Shown piece by piece: positions 12,126-53,482 of a DNA stretch of 64,000 nucleotides (position 1 is its first letter; every line of letters starts with the position of its first letter). The notes below the pieces were generated by a model. That model saw only the letters and a program-made list of their open reading frames with translations, was not told where the DNA came from and ran no database searches. The stretch comes from Raillietiella orientalis (taxonomy: Eukaryota). Made by a program: the position numbers and the translations under genes. The stretch spans positions 62,001 to 126,000 of the forward strand of contig JAYWIR010000090.1 in the NCBI GenBank assembly GCA_036172245.1, in the 5' to 3' direction.

Positions 12126-12185
12126 CTTCGCTCTCGTCTCCGTGCTTTCATCCGCTTCATCTTGGCGTCGTACATTTTGACGACG

Positions 12186-17701: not shown

Positions 17702-18101
17702 TCATTGCCCTACCCTCCATAAACTAAATTTGTATTTTCTTTTTACACCCGCGTCCCCATAGGCTCCGGAACATTTTAGGTGCTCATCGTATAAATCCCC
17801 GTGAGTACGGAGCCTAACCAAAAACCCGTTACCCTTCCCTCCAGTTTTTGATTTTTGTTTGTTTCCCCTCATTCCCCCCACGCTGCGAGCGGTTTGTTTA
17901 CCAGGCCTGCGAGCTGGTAATTTTTCTATGTTCTCTGTCGTTCTGTTGGCTGGGGACATTGTCCCTGACCAGTTTATTATTATTAATAAACGCCCCGGCG
18001 TGACCGGCTGATAAATTTCAATCGAGTGCGGACGTGTTTTTCTTCGCTCTCGTCTCCGTGCTTTCATCCGCTTCATCTTGGCGTCGTACATTTTGACGAC
18101 G

Positions 18102-23613: not shown

Positions 23614-23896
23614 TCATTGCCCTACCCTCCATAAACTAATTTTGTATTTTCTTTTCACACCCGCGTCCCCATAGGCTCCGGAACATTTTAGGTGCTCATC
23701 GTTTAAGTCCCCGTGAGTACGGAGCCTAACCAAAAACCCTTGACCCTTCCCTCCAGTTTTTGATTTTTGTTTGTTTCCCCTCATTCCCCCCACGCTGCGA
23801 GCGGTTTGTTTACCAGGTCTGCGTGCCGGGAATTTTTCTATGTTCTCTGTCGTTCTGTTGGTTGCAGACATTGTCCCTGACCAGTTTATTATTATT

Positions 23897-23926
23897 AATA
23901 AACGCCCCGGCGTGACCGGGTGATAA
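23897..23926 (+). other. Conserved 3'-terminal AATAAA + CCCGG-N5-CCGGG hairpin (example copy)
   Basis: Present at all 11 visible 3' ends (variant form in family A; AATGAA in H). Confidence 0.8.
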
Positions 23927-24268
23927 ATTTCAATATCCGTCTGCTAACAGGTGAGCCAGAAACACAAGAAAACGCGATGAACGAGTTGTGTGCCGCCATG
24001 CGTGCGCGAAACTTGTTCGCGGGTGAGAAGGGAATGGTCCGAAGCATCGACCACGTCTTTCTCGACGCTGACCTCTGTTCACGGTCGGCCAACGGGAGAG
24101 GGTTGCGTCGACGTTGTCGGACCATTCCCGGTTAATTTTCGAGATGCGGCCTCGCGACAAGGGACCGCCATCCAGGAATTGGCGTCTGCCGGGGGACTGG
24201 ACGCGACTCTCAGGTGCGAAGGAACACCTTCGCGAATACCTGAGAGGCGTCACGCTCCGGAATCTCCA
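23927..24268 (+). mobile_element. B1 continuation (rest of the APE domain), then interrupted by D
   Basis: Resumes (D)FNIRLLTGEPETQE..IDHVFLD, homologous to B2 29493-29835. Confidence 0.9.
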
Positions 24269-27185
24269 TTGAAACCCGGTTGCGCCGGGTCGTTTATTCT
24301 CACGAATAAACCTATACAATCTGTGACTAAACCAGTAGTCCAGCCACGCCCTGGAAAGATATAGCTTGCCGGGCTACCGGTGCGCAGACCAGCGCGGTCG
24401 ACCTCGGCCGCAGAAGGGAGGGGGAACGAAACAAAAAGAAAACAAAAAATAAACAAAAATCAGGGAGGGAGCGGGAAGGGATCACAGTCTGCTGGGAGGG
24501 TCCGTCATCCTCTGGAGGATGCCGGCAAGCTGTTTCTGCTTGTGTGGTTCCAGATGGGGCCATCGCGTCGCCATCCTGAAGAAACGGGCGGCATACACGT
24601 TGGCATCCCTGTCGCTGGATCCTTTCGTCGCTTTGCTCCATGCCACGACGATCCCGCGTAGGCAGCACAGGGCTGCAAGCGACGCCGCTGGAGGCAGGGC
24701 GTCACAGACGAAGAGGGGGCGCAAAGCGTCTCTGGGGTTGCCCCTGGGGATCCCCAGGGCTGCGGCAAAGCGTTCCCACAAGGGACGGAGGGCAACACAA
24801 TCCACTAACAGGTGGGGGAGGTATTCCCTCTCCCCGCACCTGACACAATTAGGGTTGACACCCGTCCGCGTCCAGTGGTGTCGGCGGGCATTGCAAGGAA
24901 GCCCCCAATGCAACACCAGCAGTGCCGACTGTTGCCACTTCATGGGGAGGGTGCGCGAGTCCATGAGCACCGGGGGCCACTCGAGATGTCCCTCTGGAAC
25001 ATCCAGTAGCTCTCCCCAGCGCAACAGTCCATTTGAGGTGGTCCTCAAGGTCGCAGCGTTGGTGAGCTGACCCGTTCTCCAATCCCCGATCTTCTTTGCC
25101 CTGCTGGCGATCTTGAAAGTAACCTCCCATTGTGCCGCGACGTCGCTGCCCAGATGTTCCCGTAGGGTAGGCAGTACCGCAGCAAGGGAGGTTCTTTGTG
25201 CCCACGCTCTCCTTCGGGGATTCTCGATGATTTCTCGGAGCGTGCGGCGGGCATGCGGCCCGAACAGAGCTATTCTCTCGTGTTGCGGGCTCTGCTCCTG
25301 AATCATCGCCCACGTGCGGACGGTTTCCTGCAACCAGGCAGGACCGTTCGCGGGGCGTACGAGGATCCGCGCCGAGTTGTTCTTCACGAGCTTGGCCGCC
25401 CTCCGAAGTTGAAGTCCGCAGTGAAAGATGAGGCTTCGGAGTGCAAAGTAGGACGAGAGTCCCGCATTGCCGGTGGCCCGCTCGACGAGGAGACGTGCAG
25501 GGAGGCACCAAGGGGTGCACCAATTTTCTGCCATAAAGGCAACAACTCGGAACTGGAGCTGTAGCTCCAGCCGCTCCAACGTCAGGAGGCCCAGACCACC
25601 ATCCCGACGAGGAGCGCACAAGTCCGAAAGACGGACTAGGGGCCTCCCTCTGCCCCAAAGGGCGATCCTCAGGGGGTCCTTCGTCCTCTTCTTTGACTCC
25701 GCTGAGGGGGAGGAAAAAAAAAGCAAGGGGCGAAGGAGGGGGGCCGCAAACGCGTTCCACGCCACGGCCCGTTCATGCAGGAAGAACCTGCCGTCCTGGA
25801 ACGGGCCGATCGCCTCCTGAGCCTTCTGAAGGCAGCCGGACCACGCTTCCGTAGGGGAGTAATCCTCCAACGGCACACCAAGGTACTTGAAGTACCTCAC
25901 CGTGGAGATCCCCAAACGGACCCAGTCCTGCTGCCCTCCCCACGCCGCTCCGACTGGCATTACGGACGACTTCGCCCTGTTCACCGTCAGTCCTGTTCCA
26001 CGACTCAGCAGGTCGAAGAAGTCCTCGACCGCCGAGGCCGGGTTAAACATAGGCAGCAGCAGCAGAAGATCGTCCGCGTACGCTGAAACCGCACGCGTAC
26101 CGGGGCAATCGCACGGCAGGTGCGCCAGAGTCTCCCTGTACGCTCTCAGCACCAATTCGAAAAAGGCGCTAAAGAGCAGGGGGCTCAGGCTGTTTCCCTG
26201 CCGTATGCCGCGTCGCACCTGCACGGAGTACACGGTTCGCCCGCTGAAAAGAGCATTAATGAGCGCGTCGCGCCAGCTGGAGCGCAGGTAGGCCAACAAA
26301 GAGGCCGGGAAACCCGAGCGTTTTAGAAGCTCCAGCAGGAGATTCTGGTCGACGCTGTCGAATGCTTTACGCATGTCGACAGCGACCGCAAGGGCTCCCT
26401 TCCCCACCCGACCGTTCCGTCTCCCGCCAACGGACGCAGCGGAATTCCGACTGCTCAATAAGCCCCTTCCTTGTTGGAGCTCTAACCATGTGGAAGCGTG
26501 GAACAGGTTCGCCTCCATACTTCGCCCGGAAACAGCATATGTCTGTTCCGTGCTGATGAAGATGTTGACGACCCGTCCCAAGCGCTCTGCCCACGGCTTG
26601 GCTAGCAACCTGGCGTCCGCATTCACTATTGTGATGGGACGCCGGTTGTTCATGCTCCTTAGGTCTCCTCCCTTCGGGAGGAGCCGCACCTTTGCTGAAC
26701 GAAACGAGATGGGAACGTCACCTGTCTCGCGTATCAGCAAGGTGAGTTGATGTACCAGGGGCGTTAGCTCAGCCGCGAAAGTTTGATAAAACTCCGCAGG
26801 CAGGCCGTCCTCCCCTGGAGCCTTTCGCCTCTTGAGCTTTCCGATGGCCGAGATGATCTCGCCCATCGTGAAAGGCTCGTCGAGGTTTCTTTTCTCCTCC
26901 TCCCCGATCGCTGGAGCACCTTCCGGAAGCAGGAGTCGTGAGACAGCCTGCTCCGGAGGCGCCCTGGCGTACAGGAAGGAGTAAAATTTCCTCACTATCC
27001 CGCGTTTCTGAGGGGGAACCGAGTGCTCCCGGCCCTGGCCGTCCAGCAAGCTGGCCGACCCGGATTGCTAGGCTTGCCTCTCGGCTCCCGCTCGATACTC
27101 TGCTAACCTGCGCATGTCGGGGGTTCTCGCGTAACTTCGGGCCCGAAGATAGCACCTTTCGTTACGCGGCCCCTCCCCAAATCCC
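24269..27185 (-). mobile_element. LINE copy D, 3' segment (RT-CCHC, 3' UTR), antisense in B1
   Basis: 855-aa ORF 24482..27049 with DMRKAFD, YADD, CVRCGEREYLPHLLVDC; ends AATAAACGACCCGGCGCAACCGGGTTTCAA. Confidence 0.93.
24482..27049 (-). pseudogene. D ORF2 RT and C-terminal domains (longest uninterrupted frame in the window, but separated from its APE by B2)
   Basis: RT motifs intact; the upstream part lies at 34666-35404. Confidence 0.9.
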
Positions 27186-29915
27186 TTGGCGAGCGGACGT
27201 GTTTTTCCTGAGCTCCCGAGCGAGTCGACAGGAAGCGGTTTTTTCTTTGTGTGTGTTCGTGTGGAACATCGTTGGTGTCCGATGGCAGCGATGCCTGAGG
27301 ACACCACGATGGACGTAGGTGGGGGGAGGCTTGCCCACCTCCACAGCCTGCAGAATCAGGGGCGTCCTCCCCGGAATCATCCCTGGCAACGCCGAGGACG
27401 TGGAGCGCCATGGTTTCCGCGCCGAGCGCGGAAACCTTGGCAGAGCAAGCGGCCTACAGGGCCTCCGGATATAAACCATCTCTGGTTTATAAGGTAGGAC
27501 CCCTGTTTGATGGTCGCACCGCCCGGGCTTTTAATAGGGCACTGCAGGATTTCCCTGTACGCGAGGAGGATCTTGACGGCCTCTCCGTACCAGCGGGGGG
27601 CAGCGCGTGGAGGTCGTCTGCAAAGACGTAGCCTTAGCACAGCGACTCATTAACACCCCGCTGAATGTGGATGGCCGGAAGATCCTTCCGGTTTGCATGG
27701 ACCGCTCCGTAGTGGTCCATCTAACCGGCATTACGAACCGCATGACGCGATCTGCGGTGAGTAATGCACTAAGTAAGTACGGTGAGATACACACGTTGTG
27801 GCCAAAGCCTACCATTTTCGATGGCTTTAATAGCCATTTCGGAGGCCAGGCCGCTGCGCGTGTAACAGTTAATGAGGGCAGTGGCTTGCCCCACAAACTG
27901 GAGGTCGCAAAGGAATCCGTCGACCTCTGCTACGTGGGGAAACATTGCTATTTTGGATACTCCGATGCAGTAGGGCACTTGCGCAAGCGGTGCCCGAATA
28001 TCGAGTGCCACATGTGCGGAGTTAAGGGACACGTACCTCGTGTGTGCCCCAAACGCCCCACCCCGGTGCAAACTGCTGCCAAAAAGACGCAGGCCAAAAA
28101 AGGAAAAAAGGTCGAAAGACCTTCTCGGGAAACTGGCCGGCCCCAGTCGCCATCTCCTGTTCCTCCCACCCAGACGTCGGAGGAAAAACCCGCTGAAGAC
28201 GCGGGAGAGGAAGAAGGATGGAAGCTGGTAAAGGCCAGAAAAGAAAAAAAAGTTCCCCCCGTGGAACCCGCGAGAGCGAAGAGAGAAAAGAGAGCGAAAC
28301 CGAATAAACCCGGTCCGCGCTCGAAAACTCTTCGCGAGTGCACGGTGGCACTCGAACGGATTGCCGTCCCCGAGGCTGCCACCCGGGGCGACGAGCCTCC
28401 CCTCGCCGTTTCCGCCGCGCCCGAGGTTCGCGACGACGAACCCTCTGTTTGCACAGAGGGTGAGCCGCGCGAAGCGCGCGCCGAAAGCGAGGACGCGGCG
28501 TTCGCGCAGGCGGAGGAGGAGCTCGCGGCCACGCTGGCCGAGCGTGAGAACCCCTCACGCAAGGCCGTGCGAAGGCCGGCTCCGCCGAAGAAGGCCCCCG
28601 CAGGTGAGTGCGGCCTGGGGGCCGGAAGTGCATTTTCCTCGTCGGAGGTACCCCCCCGGAAGTCGGGACGCAAGTCCCAAAAGCCGAGGAGGCGCCTCCC
28701 CTCCACCAGCGAGGAGGAGAAGCAGGAAGCCGACGGCAGCGTGGGAATCCCGGAGGGGGAATCCCACGCGCGGAAGTCGTCGAGCAGGAAACCCCCATGG
28801 AGTAGGGTGAGCAGGGGGGCGAAGTCCTCCTTGAAGGCGCGGACCCTGTACAGCCCACCCGTATGGAGGAGGGCCAACAGGTAGGCGCGACCCCACCGGA
28901 GGGTGACCCGCCCGACGCGCCGTCACCGATGGAGCAGGGGGACCAGGTGCTCGAGGCACCTGTCCCTCCTGCCCCAACTAGCGTCCCGCCCCAACAAGTG
29001 GCGGACGCCGCAGAGCCGATTTCCCAGGAATAACACCTGGGCTCGCCTGTCGCCGTCGAATCCGCGTGGCCAGTTGGAACGTCAACGGGCTGCGCGACGA
29101 GGGCAACAGACGAGATACGGCCGACACCCTGCGTGAGTTCGACCAGGCCCTGCTGCAGGAGATCCACGTGATCACCTCGGCAGACGTCCAGGAGATCGAG
29201 ACAATCGCGGGGGGTCGACTGTATTGGCGATGCGGCGCCCGCAACACCTGTGGGGTCGCGTTTTTCGTGAAGCCGGCCATCGACGCTGCCGTGAAGGGCG
29301 TACTCTTCGATGACGACGGTCGGGTCGGTCAGCTCACTCTCAGCTGGTCCGACTCGATCGGATTGATCGTCACGAACGTGTACGCCCCAAGCGGGAAAGA
29401 AGGATACAGCCACCGTACCAAGTTGCTGGAGACCCTGAAGCGCGACTGGCTGGCCGATACGAACGTACGGAAGGCACACCTGATAGCTGGGGACTTTAAT
29501 CTCCGTCTGCTGTCAGGTGAGCCCGAAGCACAAGAACGCACGGCCAACAAGTTGTGCGCTGACATGCGCACGCGCAACTTGTTGGTGGACGCAGAGGGAA
29601 TGGACCGCAGCAGCGACCACTTCTTCCTGGATGTCGACCTGTGCTCGCGGGTCGGCAAACGATGAAAAGTTGCGTCGACGCTGTCGGACCATTCCAGGTT
29701 AATCGCCGAGGTATGCCCGCGCGATAAAGGACCCCAGGCCAGGGCGTGGAGGTCGCTTGAGGACTGGAAGAGGCTCTCAGGTGCGAAGGAACACCTTCGC
29801 GAATTGCTGAGAGGCGTCACCCTCCGCAGTCTCGAAGATTGGGACATTTTCAAGGCCTCGGTCCGCGAGTTCTGCGAAGAGTTCCCCCTGCACCGCCTGC
29901 CCTTCGGATTTGGGG
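27186..29915 (+). mobile_element. LINE family B, copy B2, 5' segment (ORF1, APE), antisense in D
   Basis: Starts TTGGCGAGCGGACGTGTTTTT; ORFs 27607..28884 and 29066..29665; TSD CCCCAAAT(C/T)CC at 27175-27185 and 34666-34676. Confidence 0.92.
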
Positions 29916-31731
29916 TTATCACCCGAGTACGCCCGGGGTGTTTATTAATAAACTCTACATGCGTGGTAGAAGGCCCCACCACTGCCGTAAACACAGGACC
30001 TGTCGGGACACCGGGACGCAGCCCGGCGTGGCACTCCCCGACAGCGAAAGGGGATGAGGGGAAAAACAAAGAGAAAAATAAAGAAATAAAAAAACAAAAA
30101 GAGTTTGGAGGGCAGGGTAGGGATCACTGATCGCTGTGAGGAGGGCTATCCTTCGAAGAAAGCCCTCGAGGTCTCTCCGCATATCTCCCAGCTGGGGCCA
30201 TCCGGCAGCTCTCCGCAAGAAGCCTAGGGCATACGGGATGACATCCCTCGCCTGTGGACCCACTCTTTCGTTGTTGGCGTCGCTCCATGCAGCCACGATG
30301 CCACGGACGCAGCACAAGGCTGCCCTGGCTGCGGCTGGCTGCAGTGCGTCCTTCACGAAGAGGGGCCGAAGAACGTCTCTGGGATTGCTGCCTGTAGGGA
30401 GCCCGAGGGTCGTCCCGAACCGCTTCCAAAGGGGTCGGAGGGCAGCACAATCCACAATAAGGTGGGGAAGCGAATTCCGCTCCCCGCACCTGGCACACGC
30501 AGGATCCACAGCTGCCCTCGTCCAGTGGAAGCGGCGCGCGTTGCAGGGTAGACCCCAGTGCAACAAAAGCAACGCCGACTCTTGCCACTTAAGGGGCAGG
30601 ATCCTGGATTCCTTCAGTACCGGGGGCCACTTTAGCACATCCGTAGGGATGGCGAGCAGCTCGCCCCATCTTAATAATCCTCGCGGCTGGACGCTCGGGG
30701 TCGTGGCGTCGGCCAGTTCTCCTGTTGTCCAGCCGCTCAACTTCTCGTGTCCCTCGATGCAGCAGGAGACTTGCCACCTTGGTGTCCGGCTGCTGTGAAG
30801 TGCCCTCCTCAGGAAGGGCAGCGCCGTAGCTAGGCAGGTCGTCTCTGCCCACGTGCATCTTGCTGGACTATCCAGGAGATTCCGCAGCGGGCGTAGGGGC
30901 TGCATCGGAGACGATTCCAAGTTTTGTGGCTCCTCTGGTTAACCGCTGCCCACGTTCCAATATTCTCCTCCAGCCAGGCGGGGGAGTTGGCGGGGCAGCA
31001 AACCATCCAGCTGTTCTCCTTGGCCAATGTTGCCATGCGCCCGAGCAGTAGGCCGCATCTTCGCATCTTCCAGCCACGGCTCAGAAGAAAAGACGCGAGT
31101 CCATCGCTCCGGGACTCACGGCTGGAAAGGAGGCGGGCCGAAGTGCACCAAGGGGTGCTCCACATCTTCGCTGCGATGGCGTGGGTTCGCCACCGCAGCT
31201 GCTTCTGCACGCGCTCCAGCGTCAGGAGGCCAAGACCGCCGTCCCGACGCGGAGCGCACAAGTCCTTCAGAGGGTCTCGGGAACTCCCCTTGCTTCAAAG
31301 GGCGATACGGAGGAGGTCCTTCGTCCTCTTCTTCGATTCCACGGTGGGGAGGCAAACAAAAAGCAAGGGGAGGAGGATGGGGGCCGCATAGGGGTTCCAA
31401 ACCGCGGCCCGTTCCGGCAAGTGAAACTTGCCTTCCAGGAACGGGCCGATCGCTGTCTCGACTTTTTGGAGGCAGCTGGACCACGCTTCCGCAGGTAAGT
31501 AGTCCCCCAACGGCACACCAAGGTACTTGAAGCACCTCGCCGTGGGGATCCCCAGACGTAACCAGACCTGCTGCCCTGCCCACGCCGCACCTATTGGCAC
31601 AACCGACGACTTCGCCTTGTTAACCTGCAGTCCGGTCCCGCGGCTGAGCAGATCGAAGAAGTCTCCGACCGACTTTGCCGGGGTGGACATTGGCAACAAG
31701 AGCAGAAGATCGTCGGCGTACGCTGCAACGG
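29916..31731 (-). mobile_element. 5'-truncated B-family-like copy G, antisense inside B2
   Basis: Begins just upstream of YADD; ORFs 31295..31759, 30830..31261, 29955..30920 resemble B2 ORF2; ends AATAAACACCCCGGGCGTACTCGGGTGATAA; degenerate TSD CGGATTT at 29905 and 31732. Confidence 0.9.
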
Positions 31732-34665
31732 CGGATTTTGAAAGGGGGCTGGGAACCATAGGGCCTATTTACAGACCCGTCGGTACGAGAGGACCCCCAA
31801 TGTCGGTCTCCTGGAAGAATATCGTGCCGGGGCCGAGCGCTAAGCCTGGCAATCCAGGTCGCCAGCTTGCTGGACGACCAGGGCCGGGGGTGATCGGCCC
31901 CACCTGCGATCAGGCACCTCGTGCGCCATTACTATTCCTCCCTCTACGCTAGGGCACCCATAGAGCGGGACGCATCGCGACTCCTGCTTCCGGACGGAGC
32001 CCTGGCAATAGGGGAGGAGGAGAGGATCAGCCTCGACGAGCCTTTTTCTACCGGTGAAATTCTCGCCGGTATTAAAAGGCTCAAGAGGCGTAAGGCGCCA
32101 GGGGAGGACAGCCTGCCTGCAGAATTTTTTCAATGCTTCGCGACAGAGCTGGTCCCCCTGGTGCTCCAGTTGACCGGGCTGATCCGAGACGAAGGCGACG
32201 TTCCGGCCTCGTTTCGGTCAGCCCGCGTGAGGCTCTTCCCTAAGCGAGGAGACCTGAGATCCTTAGGCAATTGGCGTCCGATGACAATTGTGAATACGGA
32301 CGCCCAGCTGGTCGCTGGACTGTGGGCTTCGCGTCTAGGACAGGTGGCAGACTTCATAATTAGACCGGAGCAGACATACGCTGTTCCCGGGCGAAGTATG
32401 GATGCCAACCTGTTCTTCGGGAGCACATGGTTCCATGTGCAGCGCTGCCTGAATGAAACTGGCGGAAAGATTGGCAACCCCTCTTTGGGGCCGCCAGCTG
32501 AACTGGGAATGGACACCCGGGCTGGGAAGGGGGCCCTAGCGATCGCGGTCGATCTCCATAAGGCGTTCGACTGCGAGGACCAGGAGCTACTGTTGGAGCT
32601 CCTGGGTCGCATGAGCTTTCCACCCTCCCTTCTCTCCTTCCTGCGCTCCTGCTGGCCCAACGGCATCGTTAACATCTGCTTTTCCAGCCAACAGGTGTAC
32701 GGCGTGCCGGTGCGGCGGGGCATACGGCAGGGTGATAGCCTCAGTCCCCTGCTCTTTAGCACCTACTTTGAGTTGGTGCTGAGAGCGTACAGGGTGACTT
32801 TGGCTGCCCTGCCCAGCTCGTTTCCCGGCACGCCCGCCGTAGCAGCATACGCCGACGACCTTCTGCTCATGTTGCCCATGTCCGTCCCAGCAGCCGCAGT
32901 CGAGGATTTCTTCGACCTGCTAAGTCGTGGGACTGGACTTCGGGTAAACAAGGAGAAGTCGTCGGTCGTACCGGTGGGTGCGACGTGGGTCGGACGGCCT
33001 GACTGGATCCGCTTGGGGATTGCCGCGGCCAGGTACCTGAAGTACCTGGGTGTCCCGTTGGGGGATTTCTGCCTCGCAGAAGCCTGGTCAGGTCGTCTCC
33101 AGAAGGTAGAGTTGGCAATCGGCCCGTTCCTGGAAGGCAAGTTCCTTCTGCCGGAACGGGCCGCGGTGTGGAACGCGTTCGCGGCTCCCATCCACCGCCC
33201 CCTGCTTTTTGTTTGCCGTGTCCCCCGTGACATTAAAAAGAGGACCAAGGACCTACTCCGCATCGCCCTCTGGGGCAGCGGGTGGCCTCGTGTGCCTCTA
33301 GATGACTCATGCGCTCCTCGCCGGAAGGCGTTCTCGGCCTCCTGACTCTGGAGCGCCTGGACATACAGCTGCGATGGCGCACCTTCGCCATCGCAGCAAA
33401 GTCATGGAGCACCCTTCTGTGCGTTCCGGCCCGACTCCTCGCCAGCCGTGTGTCCAGGACGCAAGGACTCGCGTCGTACCTTCTGTGCTCTGGCAGGAAG
33501 GTCAGAAGATGCGGCCTTCTCCTTGGGCGCATGGAAGCCCTGGTGAGAGACAACGGCTGGACGGTATGGAGCCCCACCAAATCCTCCGCCTGGCTGGAGG
33601 AATCCGTTGCGACGTGGGCGAAGCTGAACCTCCAGACTTCCCCGGACTGGAACCGCCTGCGATTCGGCCCCAACGCCCGCTCCACACTGCGGACTACTCT
33701 GGAGTGTCCCGCCAGGAGCACGTGGGAGGAGACTACCCCTCTAGCTTCGACCCTGCCCTTCCTACGAAGGGCTTTAACCAGCGGCCGCAAGCTAAAGTGG
33801 CAAGTCTCCTGCCGAATCGCAGGAAAGGAAAAGAAGATGAGCGGTTGGACCATGGGAGAACTGGCAGATGCCACGACCCCGAGTGCCCTCCCGCGTGGGC
33901 TTCGTAGATGGGGCGAGCTGCTCGACATCCCGATGGATGACCTGAAGTGGCCTTCAATATTAATCGGATCCAGGATTCTCCCCCTTAAGTGGCAAGAGTC
34001 GGCACTGCTACTGTTGCACTGGGGTCTTCCCTGCAACGCGCGCCGCTTCCACTGGACGCGGGGAAGTGTAAGGCCTGAGTGTGCCAGGTGTGGGAGCGAG
34101 AATTGCTCCCCCACCTACTTGTTGACTGTGTTGCCCTCCGACCCCTGTGGGAACGGTTCGAGACGACCCTCGGGCTCCCAATGGGCAGCGCGCCCAGAGA
34201 CGTTCTTCGGCCTTTCTTAGTGCGGGACGCCTTGCAGCCCGCCGCAGCCCTTGCAGCCCTCTGCTGCACCCGGGGCATCGTGGCGGCCTGGAGCGACATT
34301 CGCGACGAAGGAGTGGATGCCAACGCGAGGGATGTCATCCCGTATGCGGTCTGCTTCATGCGGAGAGCTGCGAGATGGCCCATCTGGGCAGCATGAAAAT
34401 GGACCTGGAGGGCATCCTGCGAAGGATGGGCCCTACTCCCAGTAGATTGTGATCCCTTTCCCTCCCTCCAAACTCTTTTTGTTTTTTTTTTCATATCTTT
34501 ATTTTTCTTTTTGTTTTGATCCCTATCCCCCTCCACTGCCGAGGAGCGCCGGGCTGCGTCCCGGCGTCTTGGCAGGTCCGGCGTTGTGTGGCCGATAGTG
34601 GGGCCTCGTACCACGTCTATGTAGAGTTGTTTTCAATAAACGCCCCAGGAGTACCCTCGTGAAAA
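31732..34665 (+). mobile_element. B2 3' segment (RT-CCHC, 3' UTR)
   Basis: Resumes at the GF codons where B2 was broken; ORFs 31921..33345 (YADD), 33309..34220, 34079..34396; ends AATAAACGCCCCAGGAGTACCCTCGTGAAAA. Confidence 0.9.
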
Positions 34666-35404
34666 CCCCAAATTCCGCAGGTAGGCGATGCAGAGGGAAC
34701 TGGTAGCAGAACTCCTGGACCGACCGCTTGAAGCGGTCCCAGTCCTGAAGTGTCTGTATCCTGAAGCCCCGAATGAACGCGCGAAGGTGTTCCGCCGCGT
34801 CGGGAAACTTCAGCCAGTCCCCTGGCAGACGCCACGCTGACGAGAAGGGGCCCCTGTCGCGCGGATGGATCTCGAGAACTAGCGGGCGATTTTCGGACAG
34901 CTCACACGGTAACTTGCGGCGCCTGTCCACGCGACGGCGAAGGTGCTCGTCAAGAAACACGTGGTCGATGCTGTCTTTTATCCAAGGTGCACTGGCCAAC
35001 AAATTACAGGTGTGCACCGCTATGCACACCTCGTTGACCAGGTCACGCTCCGGATTCTGCCCATCTGGTTTCAGGCAAACGTTGAAATCTCCTGCAACCA
35101 GATGGGCATTCCGCACGCCTCCTTTGGTCAGCCAGTCGCGCCGGAGGGCAAGGAAAAACTCTTTCCTCGCCCTCCTGTTCATCAGATCAGCGCCACTCGG
35201 TGCGTACACGTTCGTGACGATCAGATCGATCGAGTAGGACCACCTGAGAGTCAGCTGGCCGACACGACCGTGATCGTCGAACCGCACGTCCCGAGTTGCG
35301 GCCTCGACGGCTGGCCGAAGCAAGTAGGCGATACCGCAACTTTTCAGTTTTTCACACCTATACCATAGCTGCCCTCCGGAGATCCGTTCGATCTCTGGCG
35401 CTCG
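34666..35404 (-). mobile_element. D upstream segment (APE domain), interrupted by E2
   Basis: ORF 34523..35323: NVYAP, GDFN, IDH ... FPLHRLPAEFG; joins 27185 across the B2 TSD. Confidence 0.9.
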
Positions 35405-36767
35405 TACAGTGCAGACGTGTTTCCGCGTCTATCAGCGCCAACGATCGGGCAACCTTGTGCCTGCGTTTTCGCTCGCACTTGTGTGTTCCTGTGCAATCTG
35501 CCAAGTAGCATAGTGCAACATGGCCAGTAAACAGGATAGTGTGGAGGAGCAAGCCACTGGATGCACTTCAGCTGCACTTGAAGTGGCCGCATCCGCCGTA
35601 ATGGTTTCCTGGCCCCCGGTGAGGAGTTACGCCGCCGTTACCTCCCAAAGACCAGGACCCTGTGATGCGGAGTTCCAGGCATATGTGTCATCAGGATACA
35701 TGCCTGCACTCCGCTATAAGGTCAGTGGGCCTCTTAACGGGAGAATCGGTCGTGAGCTCAATGATGAGCTCGTCCGGATCGGCGTTCGCGAGAAGGAACT
35801 CCTTGCCATAATGTCTGCTGGCAGGATGGAATATACGAAGATTCGGTGCAAGAACGCAGCACTTGTGCAGCGCTTTCTCCGTACGCCGTTGACCATCAAT
35901 GGCAAGGAAGTCCTACCTACCGCGATGGACGACTCTTTTGTCGTTGAATTGTACGACATCGATCCCGAAATCTCCGACCGCGATGTCGTAAGTGTGCTGG
36001 CGAAGTTTGCCACCGTGCACGCTCTGTGGAGGAGGCCAAATCCTTTAAAGGATTTCCCCTCTGTCCACATTGGACAAGCCTTTGCGCGGATCACCGTCAC
36101 GAACAGGCGTGTTGTGCCTGAGCAGCTGCAGTTGAACGGCACGGTCGTTCACCTGTGGTTCATAAGCCAGACTCGTGGGTGCGAGCAGTGCAAAAGAGAT
36201 GGGCATCAAATTAAAGAGTGCCCCTCTCCAAGATGCCGCTATTGCAAAGATTCGGGGCACAAAATCAAAAAGTGACCGGTACTTGCAAGAAAAAAAGGGG
36301 CCGCAGCGGAAATTCGTCGGGTCCAAGAGACCACTGCACGAAAAGCCGCAGCAGAAATAAAAAACGTCGTACGCAAAAACTCGGAAAAAACAACGAGGGA
36401 TCCGCGGTTGAAAAGAAAGCATCCCCACCCGCAACGTCCCGAAAGGAGGAAGTCACTGCGGGGAAGCCAATTAAAAAGTGGCGCGAGGGTTTGACGCGTG
36501 CCGTGCCCTCCCTCGCTGCCGAACTCGCAGGCACCTCGCCGAACCGGGAACCAGGAAATCTCCGTAACACCCTGGAGGGAAAGAAAGGAAAACAGGAAGA
36601 TCGCAACAGTGCGAAGACTTCTTGCCCCGTTCCGTTGTCCCTTCCGAGTTCCGGACAGCCCCACTGCAGCGCAGGCCCTTCTGCAAAGGCTACGAAAGCC
36701 TTAAAAAGCAGCGTCGCGACGAGGAAAAGCACGCTGCATGCAGTCGGCTCATCGCCGACTCGGCAGG
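35405..36767 (+). mobile_element. LINE family E, copy E2, 5' segment, antisense in D
   Basis: ACAGTGCAGACGTGTTTCC start; ORF1 35520..36275 with 2 knuckles. Confidence 0.92.
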
Positions 36768-36906
36768 TTTCCCCAAGTCCCACAAGGGGTAGGATAAATT
36801 TATTTTTCGAAAATTTTTCTACAAAAGCATTCACACTACAGTCTCATTCTTACAATTGGCACTGTCTTTACCACTCTGAAGTCCATGGGTTCACAAGTTC
36901 TGCACT

Positions 36907-39900
36907 AATGGTGGGTTTCCTTCTGTTTGGTCCCGGGCGTCGTCTTCTACCCTCTTCAGGATGAATCGGTATGTCCAGGCTTGGCTTTTCCCACAGTTTC
37001 TAATGCCGATTTCCCTCTTCAGGAGCCCTTATAGGATCTCCATCGGTGGTGCGACTCTTCTGGCTTTCCTCATTTTCCACCACCGCGCAAGTATGGCGGT
37101 GATGAAGAGGGCGATGGTCGTCCTCACCATGGGATTGTAACAAAGAACATCACCATCTCCCTGGAACATCCCGGCGAGGATCTCCATTAAGGGCCTGGTG
37201 GTGAGTCCGATGATCCATTTCAGGATCAGCCAGTCATGCAGCAATGTGGGACACGTAAAGACGTGAAGTCTCGTGTCGTTGTCTCCACATGCTGTGCAGT
37301 CTCGATCTTCCCGTCTTCCGGTGTAGTGCTGCAATCGGGACCCACTCTGGATTCCTCCATGATATAACATCTGGAGGTCCTCCCGGGTGCCCGGCGGAAG
37401 GTCACTCCTCCAGAGCGTCGTGCCAATCGCTAGCAGGTTGATCCGGTCACTCCCGCAGCGATCGGCGGCTTCCTGGAAGGGACTGATGTCACGGTCTTCT
37501 TCCCGAATTAATCTTCAGAGGTTTGTTTTGAATACCCTGGACCACGCAAAGTCATTGTGGTTGATCCAGACCTCGCGGGTGATGTGGGTAAAACTTGATA
37601 ACATCATCTCTATATACCTAAGTATACGAGTGTGATGTAGGTACCCTCCTCGTTTCCACTCCTGGATTCGTTGAAGGGTAACTCTGGACCGCTTGTGGAA
37701 CCAGTTTCTCGTGACAGGGAGCATCCAAGGAATCACCAGGATGGACTCGTCCTGCCAGAGTTCCCTACTTCTCGGCACGATCTTAATTTTGTGCTTTCGC
37801 ACCAGCCGTTGCTTCCTCGTCCAGGTTGGGTCGATGTTTTTCCATTCGCCTGCTCAGCCTAGCAGCGCAGTCATCAGGCCTTTCGAGTAGTTCAACGACA
37901 ACGCGGAGGACCTGTGCGTTGCATACGGCCAGTCATCATAGTGAGTGGTAATGTCTAGGATTTTTGCTTATCTATGATTTCTATGGAGTGTGCAAGCGAC
38001 TTCATCCCGGAACCGCCTTCTTCCCTGGGACGACACAGGGGTTTCAGTCTTACTCTTGGACGATAGTGGCCCCAGAGTGTTTTTCTTTGCAGCTTGTCGA
38101 ACTCCCTCGTGGTGTACTTGTTCATCTTCGCAAAGCCCGCCCCGGAAAGAACTTTTAAAAGGAGTACTCCGTTCCATATGTTGGCCTTTCGCTTCATTCC
38201 AAGGTCCGTTCGGGTGTACTTGGCTGCTTCCTTGGCCGTTTTCCCTAGGATCTCGGTCCACAGTAGCTTCGACGCGGAGACGTCGCCAATGTAGACACCC
38301 GGGTAATTGGCCTTGTTCACCGTCCGGAATCCTGTCCTCGTTTGAGCTGAGAGATCGAGGATTCCAACGGGCAAGAGCTGGCTTTTCTGGGCGTTGATCT
38401 CTAGACCAAGGCCTTGATCCATCAGGTCTACCACATCCAGAAACGCCCGTTGATTTCTATCTCCCTTGATAAAGAAGAGTAGATCATCAGCGTATGCCAG
38501 ATGGGTAAGACGCTGGCCATCGATTGCTATGCCTTGGAGTCATCCGCTCTTCTCGATAATGGACGACAACGCCTCCATGTAGATGACGAACAGCATCGGA
38601 CTTAGCGAATCGCCCTGCCGGACTCCCCGTTCCATCCGGATTGCTGCCGTCTTCTGGCCGTTTATTTTGATTCGGCAGTACTGGTTCTAGAGCACCACCC
38701 TCACGAAGTTGCTGAAGTGTTCCGGAAGGGCTAGCTTCTCCAGAACCTTCAGCAGCATCCCATGGTCGATGGAGTCGAAAGCCTTCTCCATGTCAGTGAA
38801 CACCAGCACCAGATTCTCGCCGACGTATCGGCTGAGTCCGACGGTGGCCTGGGCACACTTGACATTGTCCGACATGTGACGTCCAGGAACTGCACACGTT
38901 TGGACCGGAGAGATGAGCTTCGACATGACCCTGCCTAAGCGGTTGGACCAGATCTTCGCCAACCACTTGGCATCGGAGTTCAGGATTGCGATTGGCCTTT
39001 ATTGAGCGATCTGGGTTGGGTCGCCTCCTTTCGGCAACAATCTCATCCTCCTCTCGTAGAAGGATTCAGGTAGTCTGCCTTCTTCACGGATGCAGAGGGT
39101 TAACTGGTGGAACAAGGGCATGTAGGCATACAGGTACCGACGATAGTGCGTGATGGGTACACTGTCAGGGTCCTCCGCCACATCCTGCGCAGTTTTTCAG
39201 AAGCAGTCTTGACCTCGTCTTCGGAGAATTCCTTCTCCAGTCAGTTCCGCTGGATGTCGTCGGTCCTCTTCTCGAGGTAGCTCAGAAAGGCCTGTTGACT
39301 AAAGCGACAGAGATGTTGTCGCCTAAAGTGTTTCGTGTAATGCCTTTGAAAGGCATTCACGATGTCCTCAGACGACTGTCGCTTTTGACCGTCGTACTGG
39401 ATGCAGAAGATATCTGTTGCCAGATTTCTCTTCTCCAGCACACCGACTTCCCCTTTTATGTTCTTGAAGACGTACCGACTCTCGTACTGATCGAAGTACT
39501 TTGAGAGTGAGCGGTCTTGGATGTTTAGCTCCCGGTACGCCTCCTGCCTCAAGCGCCTATCCTCGAATTGCATATTTGCAAACAGGAGTATCCTGTGTTT
39601 CAAGCTGTACCAGTCGGTGACTCTTCTGATTTTTGTGGTTCTCAGAATCGTCTCCAGGACCTCCTGATGTCCAGGATGTGTCTCGAACCAGGAGGACATG
39701 CTGATAAGCGCCGCCCTGGTGCCTTGCCTCCGCCAAGGATTCTCCGTTCTTAGGGAAAACCGCACCAGGGGGTGATCGGATACCGTGGTCATAATGTCTC
39801 GAAAACCCTGAATGCGATTCCCAAGTTCGGTGCTGTGCAGGACGTGATCGATCGGCTTGTGACTTGCAGTTCGCCACACCAGTCCGAACTCGTCGGATAA

Positions 39901-40413
39901 CCGCCGATACGCCGTCCTTCCTCTGGCGTCTTGTGAGTGAGTGATCTCATCCAATATGTTGAGATCGCCAGCAACAATCACGACGTCCTTGGGGGCAAAC
40001 TTTTTAAGGAGTGCTCCATGCAGCGCCTCCACACAACGATGTTTCAGGCTGTGCGGCCCGTACACGTTCAGCAGGATGAGGTGAACAGTAGCGGACCAGG
40101 CCAATCGCACGCCGATGATTCGTCCGGGTTGGGGACAGAACACTTCCAGAATACTGGGGGCCAAGTTGTTCTTCTTAAGGACCGCCACGCCCTGCATGTT
40201 CCGTTCTCTCTCGCTGACGAACATCTGCCCGTTGAATCGCCGTTTTATTTGCTGACTAATCTCTAGACCCATCTTGTGGGTCTCCTGCAAACACACTATG
40301 TCTTGTTGTGCGATGGTCCGCACAATCCTTTTTCTTTTTCCCTGGTCGACCATACCGTTTACATTCCAGGAGGCGATGTTCAGCCTCCTGGCGGTCGATA
40401 GGGAAGGGGCCAT
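36907..40413 (-). pseudogene. A2 ORF2 (APE-RT-CCHC), disrupted
   Basis: ORFs 39241..40518, 38687..38962, 37955..38434, 37515..37802, 37029..37370. Confidence 0.9.
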
Positions 40414-40426
40414 AAAAGGGAAAGAC

Positions 40427-42265
40427 CTATTTCTTGGCCTTCCTGAGCTTTGTCTGTCTGAGAGAGCGTGCTCTTCCAGACAATGAAGAAGCAGCGGGCT
40501 TCTCGCTGCCGGCGTCACTCTCTGTTCCGGTGAGGTCGGTTACTTCCGCCTCCTCCGTCGAGTGTTCGGCCTGCGCGATCAGTTTTCGAAATAACGTCTC
40601 TATCTCTAACTTGGCGTAGAAGTGCGCCTTTACGTCGAGAAGCTGTTTCTCTAGCTTCTCGCGCTCGGTGACCTCCACAACCTGGTTGACCTTCTCCTGT
40701 GCATTGCAGATCTTCTGCAAGATTTTCTCTTGCTGATGACCGCTTTGCACCTCTAGGACTTCATTAGCCAGTGATGCCAGCTCCTCCGTAGATTGCAGTG
40801 CCTCCTGGGACACCGAAGTGGCTCCGGCTATTTCTTCTTCCGCGCCTTCCTGCGCTTTTTCCATCTTCTCGCCTTCTTGCTCTTCACCTTCCTGGATAAG
40901 AGGGGTTTCTTGCTCCTTGACGAGCATCCTCCTCTTTCCTTTCTTCTTTACCTGTATGAAGCCGTCTTTCTATACCAGGACGGCTTCTTCCACCTTGTTC
41001 GGCCTTCCTGCCTTCTGAGGCTGTTCCGCCTCCTTGGTGTTTCTCTCTCTCACGGGAGAGAGACCTCGAATCCTTCTGCAGTTTGCAAACTCCGGACAGC
41101 TCCATTTGGCATGTCCGTGTTTCTTGCAGAAGGAGCACACCTCCGGCTGCGGGCAGTTTCGGACTTGATGTCCTACTTTTCCGCAGCGGAAACAACGACA
41201 CGTTGGGCAAGCGTTGGCCCTGTGGCCGAACTGCTTGCACCCGGTGCAGAATATCGGCTGTAGCCGGTAACGCGCTTTCACTCCCTGGGATTGTTTGTCA
41301 AGAACGGCTAATCCAGGGATCACAGCTCCCTCTTTCATCTTTATTTTGGCGATTAAGTCGCCAGAAAATATATTTGCAGAGAAGTTCTGGAATTCAAGGT
41401 CCAGAACTTCCCCATACTGGTCCGAAAAGTACCACACCGTTAGTTGCGGTGTGAGGATTTAGATGCCTTTCAGAAAGACGGTTGTGTATGGCATTTCGCC
41501 AATACCACAAACCATCCTCCCTTGTATATTGATCCCCTTCTGGATCAAACGCTCTCTAATATTTTTACAGTCTGTGAAGACTGTGAACCCTTTATTTGCC
41601 GGTATGATCGCCTGTATGCTATCAAAATTGATATCCGTTTTATCGAGGGACAGATACACCTCCCTGATATTATTAAATTTGATCAGCCCTGTCTTGAAAA
41701 TGATGGGCTTCATATTCGGCCCTAATTCCGCGATTTGCGGATCCACCTTTTGGACTTTGCCGCATAGCGGCTTCCCGAATTTTCTTGGTGGGTGGACACT
41801 CGCTTGTCCAGCCGCCACCGACGCATAGGACAAGGGCTGCGCCGCCGCAGCCGAACAAGATGGCGTCTCGCCCTGCACCGCGTGGACGCCCGCGGGTCCT
41901 GCCTGGGACGCCGCCGCCGCGAGCGCAACCCTCGACGTCGCCACCGCTGCTGCCGCGGGCGGCACCCTCGGCATCGCCGCCGCAGGCGCGACCTTCCCCA
42001 CCGCGGACACGATCCTCGGCGTCGCCGCCGCGGGTAAGAACTCCGCCGTCTTCACCGCGGGCACGACCCTTGGCATCGCCGTCGCCGGCGCAGCAAAGCC
42101 CGCCGCGGGCGCGATCCTCGGCATGCCTGCCACCGCCTCGCCGTTGCCGCACGTTACCTCCATGGCTTCGTTGAGGGATGACGGTCTCTCCATTCCTCCT
42201 CTAGGTGCCTGCATCCTAGAAGCTGGTCTTGATGCACGGGGCCACTGCAGGTCTTTCGTTGCCAT
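40427..42265 (-). pseudogene. A2 ORF1 (Ala-rich N-terminus, 3 zinc knuckles), frameshifted
   Basis: MATKDLQWP at 42265 within ORF 41459..43120; knuckles in 40970..41437; C-terminus in 40427..40927. Confidence 0.85.
41900..42140 (-). repeat. Degenerate GC-rich coding repeat (M/T)PR(I/V)xPAA, about 5 units, in A ORF1
   Basis: MPRIAPAA, MPRVVPAV, TPRIVSAV, MPRVPPAA, TSRVALAA. Confidence 0.7.
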
Positions 42266-42380
42266 CTCCTTGGCGCTTCTTTTGTTGTTTCGTCGGGAAA
42301 CCTCCCCTCTCCGGGCACACACTAGCACAATTAACTGATTAAGTTGTCGTGCGCACAATACTTTGAGCCGCGAAGCAAGT

Positions 42381-43863
42381 TCACCGACTCGGCAGGAGAG
42401 TAGCAATCTCCCGACCGTCAAGAAGGTGACTCCGTTGCCGCCTTTCAAAAGATTAGCGAAAGCAACGCCCCTAGAGAACGTAGCGAAAATCCCGGAGGTT
42501 TCCGCAACTACTGTCGCGGAAGGCTCCGAAAATCGTGAAGGCGAATGGAAGGTTGTGGAGGGGAGGAAAGAAAAATCTCCAAAAAAAGCTTCGCAACATC
42601 CTTCCCTAAGCTCTTCCAAAGGAAAAAGCAGTTGCGCCAATACGAAAACACTCGCGGCTTGTGCCATTTCCCAGGAAAAAGCCAGCGCCTTCAACGCGTG
42701 CAAGTCCGCTTCTGTGACCGCCGAAAAGACCATTCCGGTGTAATCGGACGGATGCAAGCGCACGTCGATCGTGCGAGCATCAGACTCCGAAAAGGAGTCC
42801 GATAGCGCCGCTGAACGACGCGTTACTCGCGCGGGAGCGAGCGCCCGCAGGTCTGAAGTTCTGAGGCGTGACACACTCGCCCCGGAACATCGAGTGCTCA
42901 CCACGGAGCCCACAGGTTCTGCACCCAGGGAGGAGCACTCTATTACGTGCAGCACAGTTGAGGCCGGTGGCGACTGCGCCCTCCAGCCCGTCGTGCTACT
43001 TACTGCCCGCTCGCCGGGTGAGGCGAACACCACGGCCTCGCTTTCCCAGCCGTGATGAGGGCAATCGCGTGTTCTCGTCGTGTTGCCGTAACGTCTTGGA
43101 ACGTCAACGGGCTCCAACACGAGGAGAAGAGGCGACTAGTGGCTGACGCTCTGCGCGCCTTCGACTTGACGCTCCTGCAGGAGATTCACAGCATCTCTGG
43201 AGAGCAGGCTGCCGAAATCGAACGGCGCGCAGGCGGAACGCTACTTTATAGGTACGGCGCTGCACGTACGTGCGGCGTCGCTTTCCTCGTGCGAGGAACT
43301 TTGGCGGGAGCGGTGCGCAGCGTTCGTTTCGACACGGAAGGCCGAGTGGGACAGCTTGTACTCAAGTGGTCCGACTCGACCGACCTTGTCGTAACCAACG
43401 TGTACGCGCCGAGCGGTGCTGGACGATGGGCCGAAAGGGTTGAGTTCTTCGGTACCGTTCAGAGCCAGTGGCTCACTCGTTCTCACCCTACTGTGGCGCA
43501 TCTCATTGCGGGGGACTTTTACGTCCAGCTGCTGACCGGGAATAGCTCCAACAAAAGGGAAAAGTTGCTAGCGGAAGAGATGTGCGCTACCGTGCACGCG
43601 TGCAACTTGTTCGCTAGCGACCCTGTTATGGCAGCAACGCCGGACAACGTATACCTTGATGAGCACTTGCTCTTTCGAGTGGGTCGGAGAGGTCCCGTGC
43701 CGTCTGTGCTTTCAGACCACAACAGGCTCGAGTTCGAGTTGCTCCCGCCAGGCAAGGGGCCTCCAAACTGTTTTTGGAGGATGCTGGCAGACTGGCTATG
43801 CCATCCGTAGGTGGTCGAGCATCTTCGTCAGTACCTCCTCGGCTTTGTTATAAGTGAGCTCGA
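42381..43863 (+). mobile_element. E2 continuation (ORF1 C-terminus, ORF2 APE), interrupted by H
   Basis: TGATG overlap at 43053-43057; APE ORF 43052..43810 (WNVNG, LQE, NVYAP, SDH). Confidence 0.92.
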
Positions 43864-46800
43864 TTTTCACCCGGTTGCGCCGGGGCGTTCATTCGTTGGA
43901 ATAAAACAAACGTTGGTGGCTGACCAGGTGATGCGGCCACGCACTGGTATACAAAATTAAGCCTGCCGGGTCACCGGTTGGTATTCCGGCACGGTCCATC
44001 GCGATAGCAGAGGGGCCAAGGACAAAACAAAAAGAAAACAAAAAAAAAGAAATATATGAAATTAAGATCTGGGAAGCACGGGAAGGGATCACAGTCTGCT
44101 GTCTGGCCGTTACATCCTTTGCAGGATGCCGTCAAGCTGTTTTTGGATTTTTGAATCCAGATGGGTCCATCCTGTCGCCGTCCGCATAAATTCGGCTGCG
44201 CACTGGACGGCACCCTTATCGCGAGGTCCTCCCGTTGCTTTGCTCCATGCAGCGACGATCCTGCGAAAGCAGCAGAGAGCTTCTAACGCGGCCGAGGGCC
44301 GAAGGGCGTCGCAAACGAAGAGGGATCTGATTGCGTCTCTGGGGTTGCCACAGGGGTTACCGATTGCCGCGGCGAAAAGGTTCCAAAGGGGCCGAAGAGC
44401 CACACAATCTAAAAGGAGGTGAGTGAGGGACTCCCGTTCTCCACACCTCGCACAATTAGGGCTCACCGCTCCCTAGGTCCAAAGGTGTTGGCGGGCGTTG
44501 CAGGGGAATCCCCAATGCAGCAACAATAGCGCCGACTCCTGCCATTTTAAGGGGAGGATGGAGGTGTTCATCAGCACCGGGGGCCACTTAAATTGTTCCC
44601 GCGGAACATTAAGCAGCTCGCCCCAGCGCAAAAGTCCAATAGGGGTGGTAGTCCGGGCCGCGGTATCGCAGAGAATTCCCGTTTTCCATTCCCCGATCTT
44701 TTTCTCCGTACCGGAGATTTTGATGTAAACATCCCATTTCGCAGCATTGTTGCTGTTCAAATGTTCCGCGAGCGGAAACAGCATTGCAGCGAGGGGAGTT
44801 TTTTTTGCCCACGCTCGTTTTTGGGGGTTCTCCAGGACCCCCCGGAGCGTCAGGCGGTCATTACGGGCGAAGAATTGTTTCTGCCCTCCTTGGGTGCGTT
44901 GCTGGTTGCTCCTTGCCCACGTCTGAACCGTTTCCTGCAGCCATGTAGGTCCGTTAACGGGGAGACAGCAGAGCCATCCCGCGTTCTTCCTCATCAGGTC
45001 AGTCACTCTCTGCAGCTGCAACCCGCAGTGACCGACTTGGCGGCGACGACTGAACGCAAGGAAGGATGACAGTCCCACCTTGCCTGTAGCCTGCTCGACA
45101 AGGAGACGTGCGAAATCGCACCAACTGCTGATCCAATACTTCGCCACTAGGGCGAGTAGTCGAAACTGGAGCTGGAGCTCCAGCCGCTTCAGCGTTAGGA
45201 GGCCGAGACGGCCGTCCTGACGCGGAGCGCTCAAGTCCTCAAGCCGGACTCGGGCCTTCCCATTACCCTACAGGGCAATCCTTAGGAGGTCCTTCGTCCG
45301 CTTTTCAGTCTCTATGGTGGGGGGACACACAAAAAGCAGGGAACGGAGAAGGGGCGCCGCGGATGCGTTCCACACCGCGGCCCGTTCCGGCAGGAAAAAC
45401 CTGCGGCCTTGGAACGGGCCGATCGCCGTCTCTACCTTTTGAAGGCAGCTGGACCACGCATCCAAAGGGAGATAATCACCCATCGGTAAATCTAGGTACT
45501 TGAAGTACCGTACCGTGGGGATCCCCAAACGGACCCAGTCCGGCTGCCCTGCCCACGCCGCACCGATTCGCATGACGGACGACTTCGCCCTGTTCACCTC
45601 AAGCCCGGTTCCCCGACTTAGCAGGTCGAAGAACTCCTCGACCGCCGATGCCGGGGTGGACATAGTTAGCAGCAGCAGTAGGTCGTCCGCATATGCTGAC
45701 ACCGCAAGCGTACCGGGATAGTCGCGCGGCAGGTGCTCAAGAGTTTCCCTGTACGCTCTCAGTACCAACTCGAAGTAGGTATTGAAGAGCAAGGGACTCA
45801 GTCTGTCTCCCTGCCGTATGCCGCGTCGCACCGGTACGCCGTGCACGGTGTGTCCACTGAAAAAGATCTGGATGAGCGCGTCGCGCCAGCAGGATCGCAG
45901 GTAGGTCAGCAAAGAGACCGGGAAGCCCAAGCGTTCCAGGAGCTCCAGGAGGAGCCTCTGGTCGACACAGTCGAATGCTTTATGCAAATCGACTGCCACT
46001 GCGATGGCTCCCTCCCCCCCCAACCATCCCGTTTTCTAGCGGCGCACATTCCGGAAGTCCGGTTGCCCATCCTGACTTTTTCCTGTGGGAGCGCGAAAAA
46101 CGTGCTGGCGAGGAACAGGTTGGCATCCATGCTCCTCCCGGGAACAGCATGTGTCTGCTCCGGGCTAATAAAGCTTTCCGCTAACCACCCCAGGCATTCA
46201 GCCCACAATTTCGCCAGCAACTTGGCGTCCGCGTTTATCACGGTAATCGGCCGCCAGTTGCTCATGCTCCGAAGGTCTCCTTTCTTAGGGAGGAGACGCA
46301 CCTTTGCCGAACGAAACGAGGCGGGGACGTCGCCCGTTTCGCGGATCAGCAAGGTGAGTTTCTTCACCAGAGGAGTAAGCTCTGCCGCGAAATATTGAAA
46401 AAATTCCGCTGGCAGGCCGTCCTCCTCTGGAGCCTTCCGCCTCTTGAGCTTTCCGATGGCCGAGATGATCTCGCCCATCGCGAAAGGCTCGTCGAGGGTC
46501 TTTCTATCTTCCTCTCCGAACGCCGAAGCGCCTTCCGGAAGAAGAAGTCGCGAGACATCCCGTTCCGGTTTAGCGCGCGCGTACAGGGAGGAATAGAATT
46601 TTTTTAATAAGCCTTTTACCTGGGCGGGGGCCGAGTGCTCCGAACCCTGGTCGTCCAGTAAGCTGGTCGACCCGGATTGCCACGCCTGCCTCTCGGCTCG
46701 CGCACGGTATTTGGCTAGCCTGCGTACGTCTGGTGTTGGCGCGTAACATCGAGATTGTAAATACCATCTCTCGTTACGCACGCTTTCACCAAACCCGGCA

Positions 46801-53390: not shown

Positions 53391-53482
53391 GGCTAGAGCG
53401 GACGTGTTTCCTCGGTGCTACTCGTGCCGGGAACCGTCCCTAGGTGTAGGCTTCGTGTGTGGTGGTGGTCGATCAGGCTGCA

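Follow-up and report, generated by a model that had tools for sequence, protein, structure and literature searches.

Two non-LTR retrotransposons, D and H, interrupt two different host elements at the same codon position, and the question is how both come to insert there. The window, i.e. the whole stretch of 64,000 nucleotides analysed here (C90:62001-126000, from a genome of 210 Mb in 491 contigs), is filled end to end by ~5.5 kb non-LTR retrotransposons with an ORF1 and an APE-RT ORF2 (Table 1). The host B1 ends with ...CGG AAT CTC CA at 24268 and is followed from 24269 by the reverse complement of the D 3' end; E2 ends with ...AGT GAG CTC GA at 43863, and the reverse complement of the H 3' end starts at 43864. 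Both breaks fall after base 2 of the codon preceding Asp-Trp (the DW site) in the APE-RT linker, as an earlier note on this DNA had read them. That note also held that the two hosts share little sequence beyond GGC-N15-CTC-(C/G)A and that recognition must be highly degenerate or rely on something other than a simple DNA motif.

Table 1. Elements, junctions and homologous empty sites in the window; positions are those of the window, and the caret marks the insertion point.
Feature	Position	Strand	Remarks
B1, rest of B-type (Bc) host LINE, APE end to linker	23927..24268	+	94-95% to Bc reference
D target-site duplication, upstream copy, 17 bp (16-17)	24252..24268	+	putative nick after 24268
D 3' terminus: two stem-loops around AATAAA, fixed end GGGTTTCAA, no poly(A) run	24269..24310	-	
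D, 3' part (RT, C-terminal zinc-binding region, 3' UTR)	24269..27184	-	93-98% to full-length D
B2 (Ba family), antisense in D at 'HRLPxxFG' site, 11-bp duplication, carries F	27190..34666	+	
F, 5'-truncated B-type element at homologous 'GFG' site of B2	29917..31733	-	
5' part of D's host sequence past B2	34667..35415	-	linker D-like (92%), APE part A-like (78-84%)
E2 host LINE (ORF1, APE, linker to H junction), interrupted by G	35416..43863	+	
G, distant LINE family, antisense in E2 ORF1, duplication ~16 bp	36766..42380	-	
H target-site duplication, upstream copy, 5 bp (5-6)	43859..43863	+	putative nick after 43863
H element (end of ORF1, APE, RT, 3' UTR; fixed end GGGTGAAAA)	43864..48170	-	
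Empty homologous site in E1, CTT GC^GGACTGGGAC	14887..14958	+	second copy at 20830
Empty homologous site in E3, CTC GA^GGACTGGGAC	50943..51014	+	E3 = family hit by H elsewhere
Empty homologous site in A, CTT CA^GGATTGGGAC	55979..56050	+	second copy at 6590

The window belongs to a nest that extends from ~56 to 152 kb of C90, has 54-62% GC and is flanked by AT-rich DNA and a 278-bp satellite array. This 95-kb nest (58% GC) directly adjoins the satellite on one flank, the other flank having 30-44% GC. The array lies beyond the window (C90:152732-225500), spans at least 70 kb and comprises ~250 copies with an 83% match. The location is possibly centromeric. In this contig-level assembly, element matches were also found at several places on contig C26. 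Within the window, positions 5922-14581 and 55342-64000 form a direct duplicate of 8.7 kb (99.4%, 49.4 kb apart), due to either a recent duplication or an assembly effect. In addition, G nested in E2, itself nested in an A-like APE, is seen twice, in inverted orientation (1-5921 and 35416-41324), with 93-94% identity for G and E2 and only 84% for the host, and these are probably parallel insertions; in the left E2 copy (C90:59461) the H site is empty. The segment at 34667-35415 was rejected as plain D on account of its A-like APE part and is a mosaic, since its linker is D-like; template switching or later recombination could have produced it.

To see whether insertions scatter around the shared position, which the earlier note had named as the refuting result, we searched for further loci with the element ends alone as queries, without host sequence, and examined 30 loci per family from 40 scored places. 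No scatter was seen, and the shared position is not due to chance. For D, 25 loci were at the shared base in B hosts, three were tandem at a regenerated site, one was elsewhere and one was at a contig end. The H loci comprised 27 at the site in E hosts, of which one was shifted by one base, and three tandem ones. A census of 727 kb of merged loci, 94% covered by these LINEs, yielded 177 3' ends. The 39 ends assigned to D were reduced to 33 by removing three of a D-like family (76-78%) and three spurious 29-base hits; 25 of these were at the site in B-type hosts, six were tandem, one was elsewhere and one was at a contig end. Among 31 H ends, 28 were at the site in three E-type host subfamilies (one base-offset) and three were tandem. 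These counts come from a biased sample, as loci were fetched by likeness to the window copies, and old or divergent copies are under-sampled. The sole off-site D 3' end (L025, C38:33651) abuts GC-rich sequence to which none of the nest references matches, and a single H 5' end is at an unrelated place. Among ten short stretches chosen by a distance guess, one contained a D 5' end; none was found for L019, which has a divergent B host.

The side of the target displaced by the insertion accounts for the shared position. The claim of little shared sequence holds for the visible flanks, where 29 of 60 bases agree, but not for the displaced side. At D 5' junctions (n=36), the host resumes with GGACTGGGAC (at most three mismatches) in 28 cases, six being tandem and two other; at H 5' junctions (n=33), it does so in 29, with two tandem and two other, one of the latter an offset tandem. 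The rebuilt sites read ...CGGAATCTCCA^GGACTGGGACCTTTTTAAGGAATCGGTCCGCG for D and ...GAGCTCGA^GGACTGGGACGATCTGAAAAGATCGGTCCGCG for H, and the two consensus sequences agree at 6/10 bases upstream and at 10/10 and 33/40 downstream. Thus, the shared position is explained by a plain motif, CTCNN^GGACTGGGAC, which is present in both hosts and well conserved once both flanks are joined; the data give no support to a need for highly degenerate recognition or for recognition with no simple motif. The GGC-N15 part of the proposed motif is present at both window junctions but was rejected as part of the target, with ACC found in 9/27 H sites. GGC at -23 reflects codon conservation rather than recognition, as it is found in 20/25 D sites and only 13/27 H sites.

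Target-site duplications bracket all 20 full-length copies, which were selected because both ends had been found; several duplications contain mismatches, and LTRs are absent. The duplications are 17 bp (16-17) in D and 5 bp (5-6) in H, and the sixth base of the H duplication belongs to the element in E3 hosts.

The two families do not share hosts. We searched the whole genome with exact patterns consisting of each host motif followed by either element end. At the B site, 39/39 filled exact junctions (a count that includes tandem junctions) carried D and none carried H; at the E site, 16/16 carried H and none carried D. No own-lineage (D/H/A) site was filled by D or H ends in genome-wide patterns with one mismatch allowed, and exact empty copies numbered 98 for own-lineage sites against 80 for B sites. 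The Fisher p-values, 3e-14 for the partition and 3e-12 for occupancy, treat the copies as independent, which they are not fully. In the window, the DW sites of B2 (29835), of the mosaic segment (34746) and of H (46867) are all empty. A point against the explanation preferred below is that the D copy of the window, despite its A-like APE, is located at a D site. With D found in B hosts only and H in E hosts only, the core motif alone is insufficient to explain host choice, and to that extent the suggestion of something beyond a simple motif stands.

The unused own-lineage site retains GGACTGGGAC unchanged but has CTT in place of CTC. C at -3 is present in 47/52 used sites and in 1/53 unused ones (49 own-lineage, 4 E1), a count from which we left out four diverged empty sites (67-79%) carrying CTC, eight empty B/E2/E3 sites and the offset H junction. 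As these sites represent a few host lineages and not 105 independent events, the contrast is a correlation. The E1 site may be empty merely through E1 being younger than H.

Tandem copies arise solely at the regenerated host site. In 4/4 tandem D pairs compared over the same region, the distance from the family majority is 1.6-2.2% for the 5' copy and 3.1-4.3% for the 3' copy, with the caveat that the majority includes these four 5' copies among 11 and that two pairs share a junction mutation; the remaining two tandem D 3' copies are 3.2 and 5.0% from it. This suggests that the side retaining both the duplication and GGACTGGGAC is reused by new D copies, the younger copy being there in all four pairs. 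For H, one of three tandem pairs speaks for reuse of this side and two weakly against.

The enzymes that would recognise this target are closely related. The APE domains of D and H are 82% identical, compared with 63-65% for D and A or Bc and 51-52% for D and E; along the full length, D and H are 60-84% identical. Sequence comparison places D and H as sister APE-RT LINE families, and with endonucleases this similar, a shared inherited specificity is the simple reading. The third codon positions hold 87/137 base differences between the two APEs, and D and H are two lineages that diverged while active, not as one decayed insertion.

PF03372 (APE) scored above the cut-off in the scanned B, E and G frames and PF00078 (reverse transcriptase) was found in the window's D (E 4e-18), while PF00098 (E2 ORF1) and PF13966 (D, A) were below curated cut-offs, with their motifs (CCHC knuckles in ORF1 and the C-terminal zinc-binding region of ORF2) visible in the translations. 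The best PDB match of the predicted D APE structure (pLDDT 77.6, pTM 0.81), by both structure and sequence, was the human L1 endonuclease (1vyb, 8sp7; TM 0.68, E 1.6e-13), and the fold and catalytic motifs are common to both. However, the aspartate spacing from GDFN to IDH is 39-43 residues in 14 measurable rows versus 54-63 in 13 outside homologues. In the alignment with L1, the missing stretch (~19 residues) maps over a segment including the bB6-bB5 hairpin, and the D model has a short helix instead of the hairpin (local pLDDT 62-83). D and H endonucleases are thus predicted to do without the L1-type target-reading hairpin. According to the available text of PMC1950540, this hairpin probes DNA downstream of the nick in L1, and its deletion lowers activity and alters specificity; a beta-hairpin is described as common among LINE endonucleases in excerpts of PMC1919474. 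The hairpin is also missing in the distant family G (window 39655-40389, minus strand, and 935-1669, plus strand), with a spacing of 39 and an APE 27-28% identical to that of D.

We consider it likely that the ORF2 protein recognises CTCNN^GGACTGGGAC together with host-specific neighbours, nicks the sense strand and primes reverse transcription there, which would yield antisense insertions. The common ancestor of D and H would have passed on one target, the stretch that codes for Leu-x-Asp-Trp-Asp in the ORF2 linker of related LINEs. The ORF2 protein would nick the host sense strand within the motif, and reverse transcription would be primed from the nicked host 3' end, so that the new copy comes to lie antisense to its host; target-primed reverse transcription of this kind is established LINE biology. 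The duplication would result from a second cut, made at a distance of 17 bp in D and of 5 bp in H, and the second cuts of the sisters would differ by 12 bp, about one helical turn. Divergence at bases beside the core would have led D to B-type and H to E-type sites, and the own lineage would escape through A-C-(A/G)-CTT where targets carry (A/G)-A-N-CTC. Against reading by the protein stands the loss of the hairpin that probes downstream DNA in L1, while the shared motif lies downstream.

This loss is one argument for a different, rather unlikely division of labour, in which a loosely specific protein makes the nick, and precision and host choice come from read-through element RNA pairing with the nicked primer strand, as in R1Bm. 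It would fit with the fixed 9-base terminus, which follows two stem-loops and has no poly(A) variation at all 33 D and 31 H ends, and with each family keeping to hosts that share at least the first eight bases of its 3' flank; R1Bm and SART1Bm provide a precedent in the available text of PMC7265360. However, H copies move freely among three host subfamilies ~30% apart, and both copies of the duplication have the host's own base (T or A) at the first flank position. Moreover, pairing with the upstream flank needs no downstream motif, yet the tandem D copies appear to reuse that side.

It is less likely still that there is no real motif and that the position is set by DNA shape, by chromatin or by an R-loop that element RNA forms with the paralogous host gene. 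The low identity of the visible flanks would agree with this, and an R-loop with the host template strand would leave the sense strand exposed and so lead to antisense insertion. DNA flexibility is read by the L1 endonuclease (available text of PMC1950540), and with 94% LINE DNA in the fetched flanks some regional targeting is possible. On the other hand, the ten bases on the hidden side at which the two consensus sequences fully agree are a motif, and RNA homology predicts mostly own-copy insertions, of which there are none against 98 empty sites. E1 and A, which insert in sense and in both orientations, respectively, also speak against this reading.

The copies at the site indicate independent insertions by several comparisons. 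INDEPENDENCE: copies in more distant hosts are not themselves more distant from each other, with a Mantel rho of -0.39 in D (25 loci) and of 0.10 in H (26 loci; p 0.17). These sets exclude loci that are tandem, off-site or interrupted, and some of the large values stem from misalignment where further elements are nested. H copies are not grouped by host subfamily (14 changes in 30 rows versus a shuffled mean of 15.9), and the D tree is mostly star-like. Among 11 D copies, we found no CpG-biased decay (CG 0.9%, CHG 1.1%, CHH 1.4%). Identity by descent, i.e. one old insertion copied along with its host by duplication or gene conversion, has near-identical pairs such as C209/C33 (0.1% apart), an E1 ~340 bp upstream in 9/25 D-in-B loci and the 99.4% duplicate of the window in its favour, but it is very improbable and, being contradicted by tree discordance, accounts for a few pairs only: D copies that differ by 1-3% from their majority are found in B subfamilies 20-25% apart, H copies, most of them 5-12% apart, occupy hosts ~30% apart, the nine E1-adjacent D copies form no clade, empty sites occur in the same host families, and single duplications separate tandem copies.

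Other families of the nest have targets of their own. In 21/30 cases, Ba-type 3' ends lie antisense in D/A-type hosts at 'GFG' codons, ~85 bp downstream of the DW site (window 27190-34666; loci L188-L217); as D inserts into B, the two families target each other. E1 inserts into B in sense orientation at the catalytic 'GDFN' codons with an 8-bp duplication, a copy of which starts B1; this holds for 12/12 ends from the census loci, one of them tandem. The E1 of the window (12100-23934) is tandem, and its sense insertion is an exception to antisense nesting. E2 insertion at 'LQEI' was seen in 4/6 matches. J-like elements lie antisense at 'SAPAEV' codons of E2/E3 hosts in 11/13 matches, with one tandem and one spurious; they were observed at window 51227-53388 and ten other loci. 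The further D-like family (76-78% at the 3' end) is antisense at the RT 'HKAFD' codons at 3/3 ends (C103:129911, C32:261331, C54:14735).

By contrast with J, the target of family A is relaxed, its 32 ends being at many sites with a short AACC motif and in both orientations, which rules out that A and J share one specific site. Flanks of 22/32 A ends were mapped to nest elements (window 5922-9618, 53395-59038; loci L158-L187). Family A is nearest D in the linker and early RT (80-88%), with a different APE (65% of amino acids).

Taken together, these LINEs may form a guild in a sequence-level arms race, a reading that we offer tentatively. Hairpin-less endonucleases would read their targets by another surface, domain or RNA and be aimed at rival ORF2 codons, with synonymous changes providing self-protection. 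D and H would represent a recent split of one target into two host-specific ones, with a shift of the second cut by roughly one helical turn (17 versus 5 bp).

Among 33 matches in the protein search, there was no named Tx1 reference; the nearest was one unnamed protein at 66%, the others having 21-29%. A metagenome scan with the 66% relative gave seven loci, none of them close (best segments 22-35%; one 28-residue segment 61%). A trait of the Tx1 clade, sequence-specific insertion into a multicopy target, is present in D and H. The available text of PMC4494074 describes Tx1-clade LINEs in other transposons, namely Tx1L in Tx1D (Xenopus), Tx1-Mar in Mariner-N4_AMi, Tx1-8_Crp and Tx1-4_AMi in LTR elements, and Tx1-9_AMi in Harbinger. 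Like these, D and H are APE-RT LINEs with a fixed site inside another transposon and a target duplication, and their tandem re-insertion around one duplication resembles that of SINEU-3 in the same source. Unlike the Tx1 elements described there, which target DNA transposons and LTR elements, D and H target ORF2 codons of paralogous LINEs. A further difference is that D and B target each other, that the sisters split hosts and that own copies are spared. In the literature searched (titles and abstract openings, with partial coverage), we found no description of mutual LINE-into-LINE targeting of ORF2.

Zepp and ZeppL of green algae are likewise L1-type LINEs that cluster by insertion into existing copies (excerpts of PMC8226300). 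Zepp targets existing Zepp copies, whereas D and H insert into other families, at a single base, and leave the homologous site of their own lineage alone (0 filled, 98 empty), so that their choice of target is not Zepp-like. The nest described here adjoins a long satellite array, and D/H targeting offers a mechanism for satellite-adjacent LINE nests. As far as the available text of the centromere atlas preprint (10.64898/2026.09.17.752431) goes, it reports nested LTR centromeres and duplicated LINEs and not this arrangement.

D and H are similar to R1Bm and SART1Bm in being APE elements with a short cleavage consensus and precise junctions (excerpts of PMC1919474, PMC7265360), and in those two elements RNA-target pairing aids precision (PMC7265360, in part). 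R1-clade targets, however, are rDNA or telomere repeats, and the R1Bm endonuclease retains the beta-hairpin that D and H lack (same excerpts of PMC1919474 and PMC7265360). Human L1 uses T-tract junctions throughout the genome and has a variable poly(A), according to the available part of PMC1950540, whereas D and H have one site and fixed ends; their bB6-bB5 hairpin segment is ~19 residues shorter than that of L1. The question that D and H raise is the sharper because the hairpin thought to steer L1 specificity is absent. Their endonucleases, 82% identical, with a common nick site, split hosts and a 12-bp difference in duplication, make a natural mutagenesis pair that bears on how APE endonucleases encode sequence specificity and on what sets second-strand cleavage. 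They are possibly also compact site-specific insertion enzymes with a target of 15-25 bp. In the known examples of site-specific LINEs for which other transposons serve as safe landing places, as given in the available text of the sources above, the targets are DNA transposons, LTR elements, RNA genes or copies of the element itself; what D and H add is the host partition, self-avoidance, the shift in duplication length and the missing hairpin, all directly testable.
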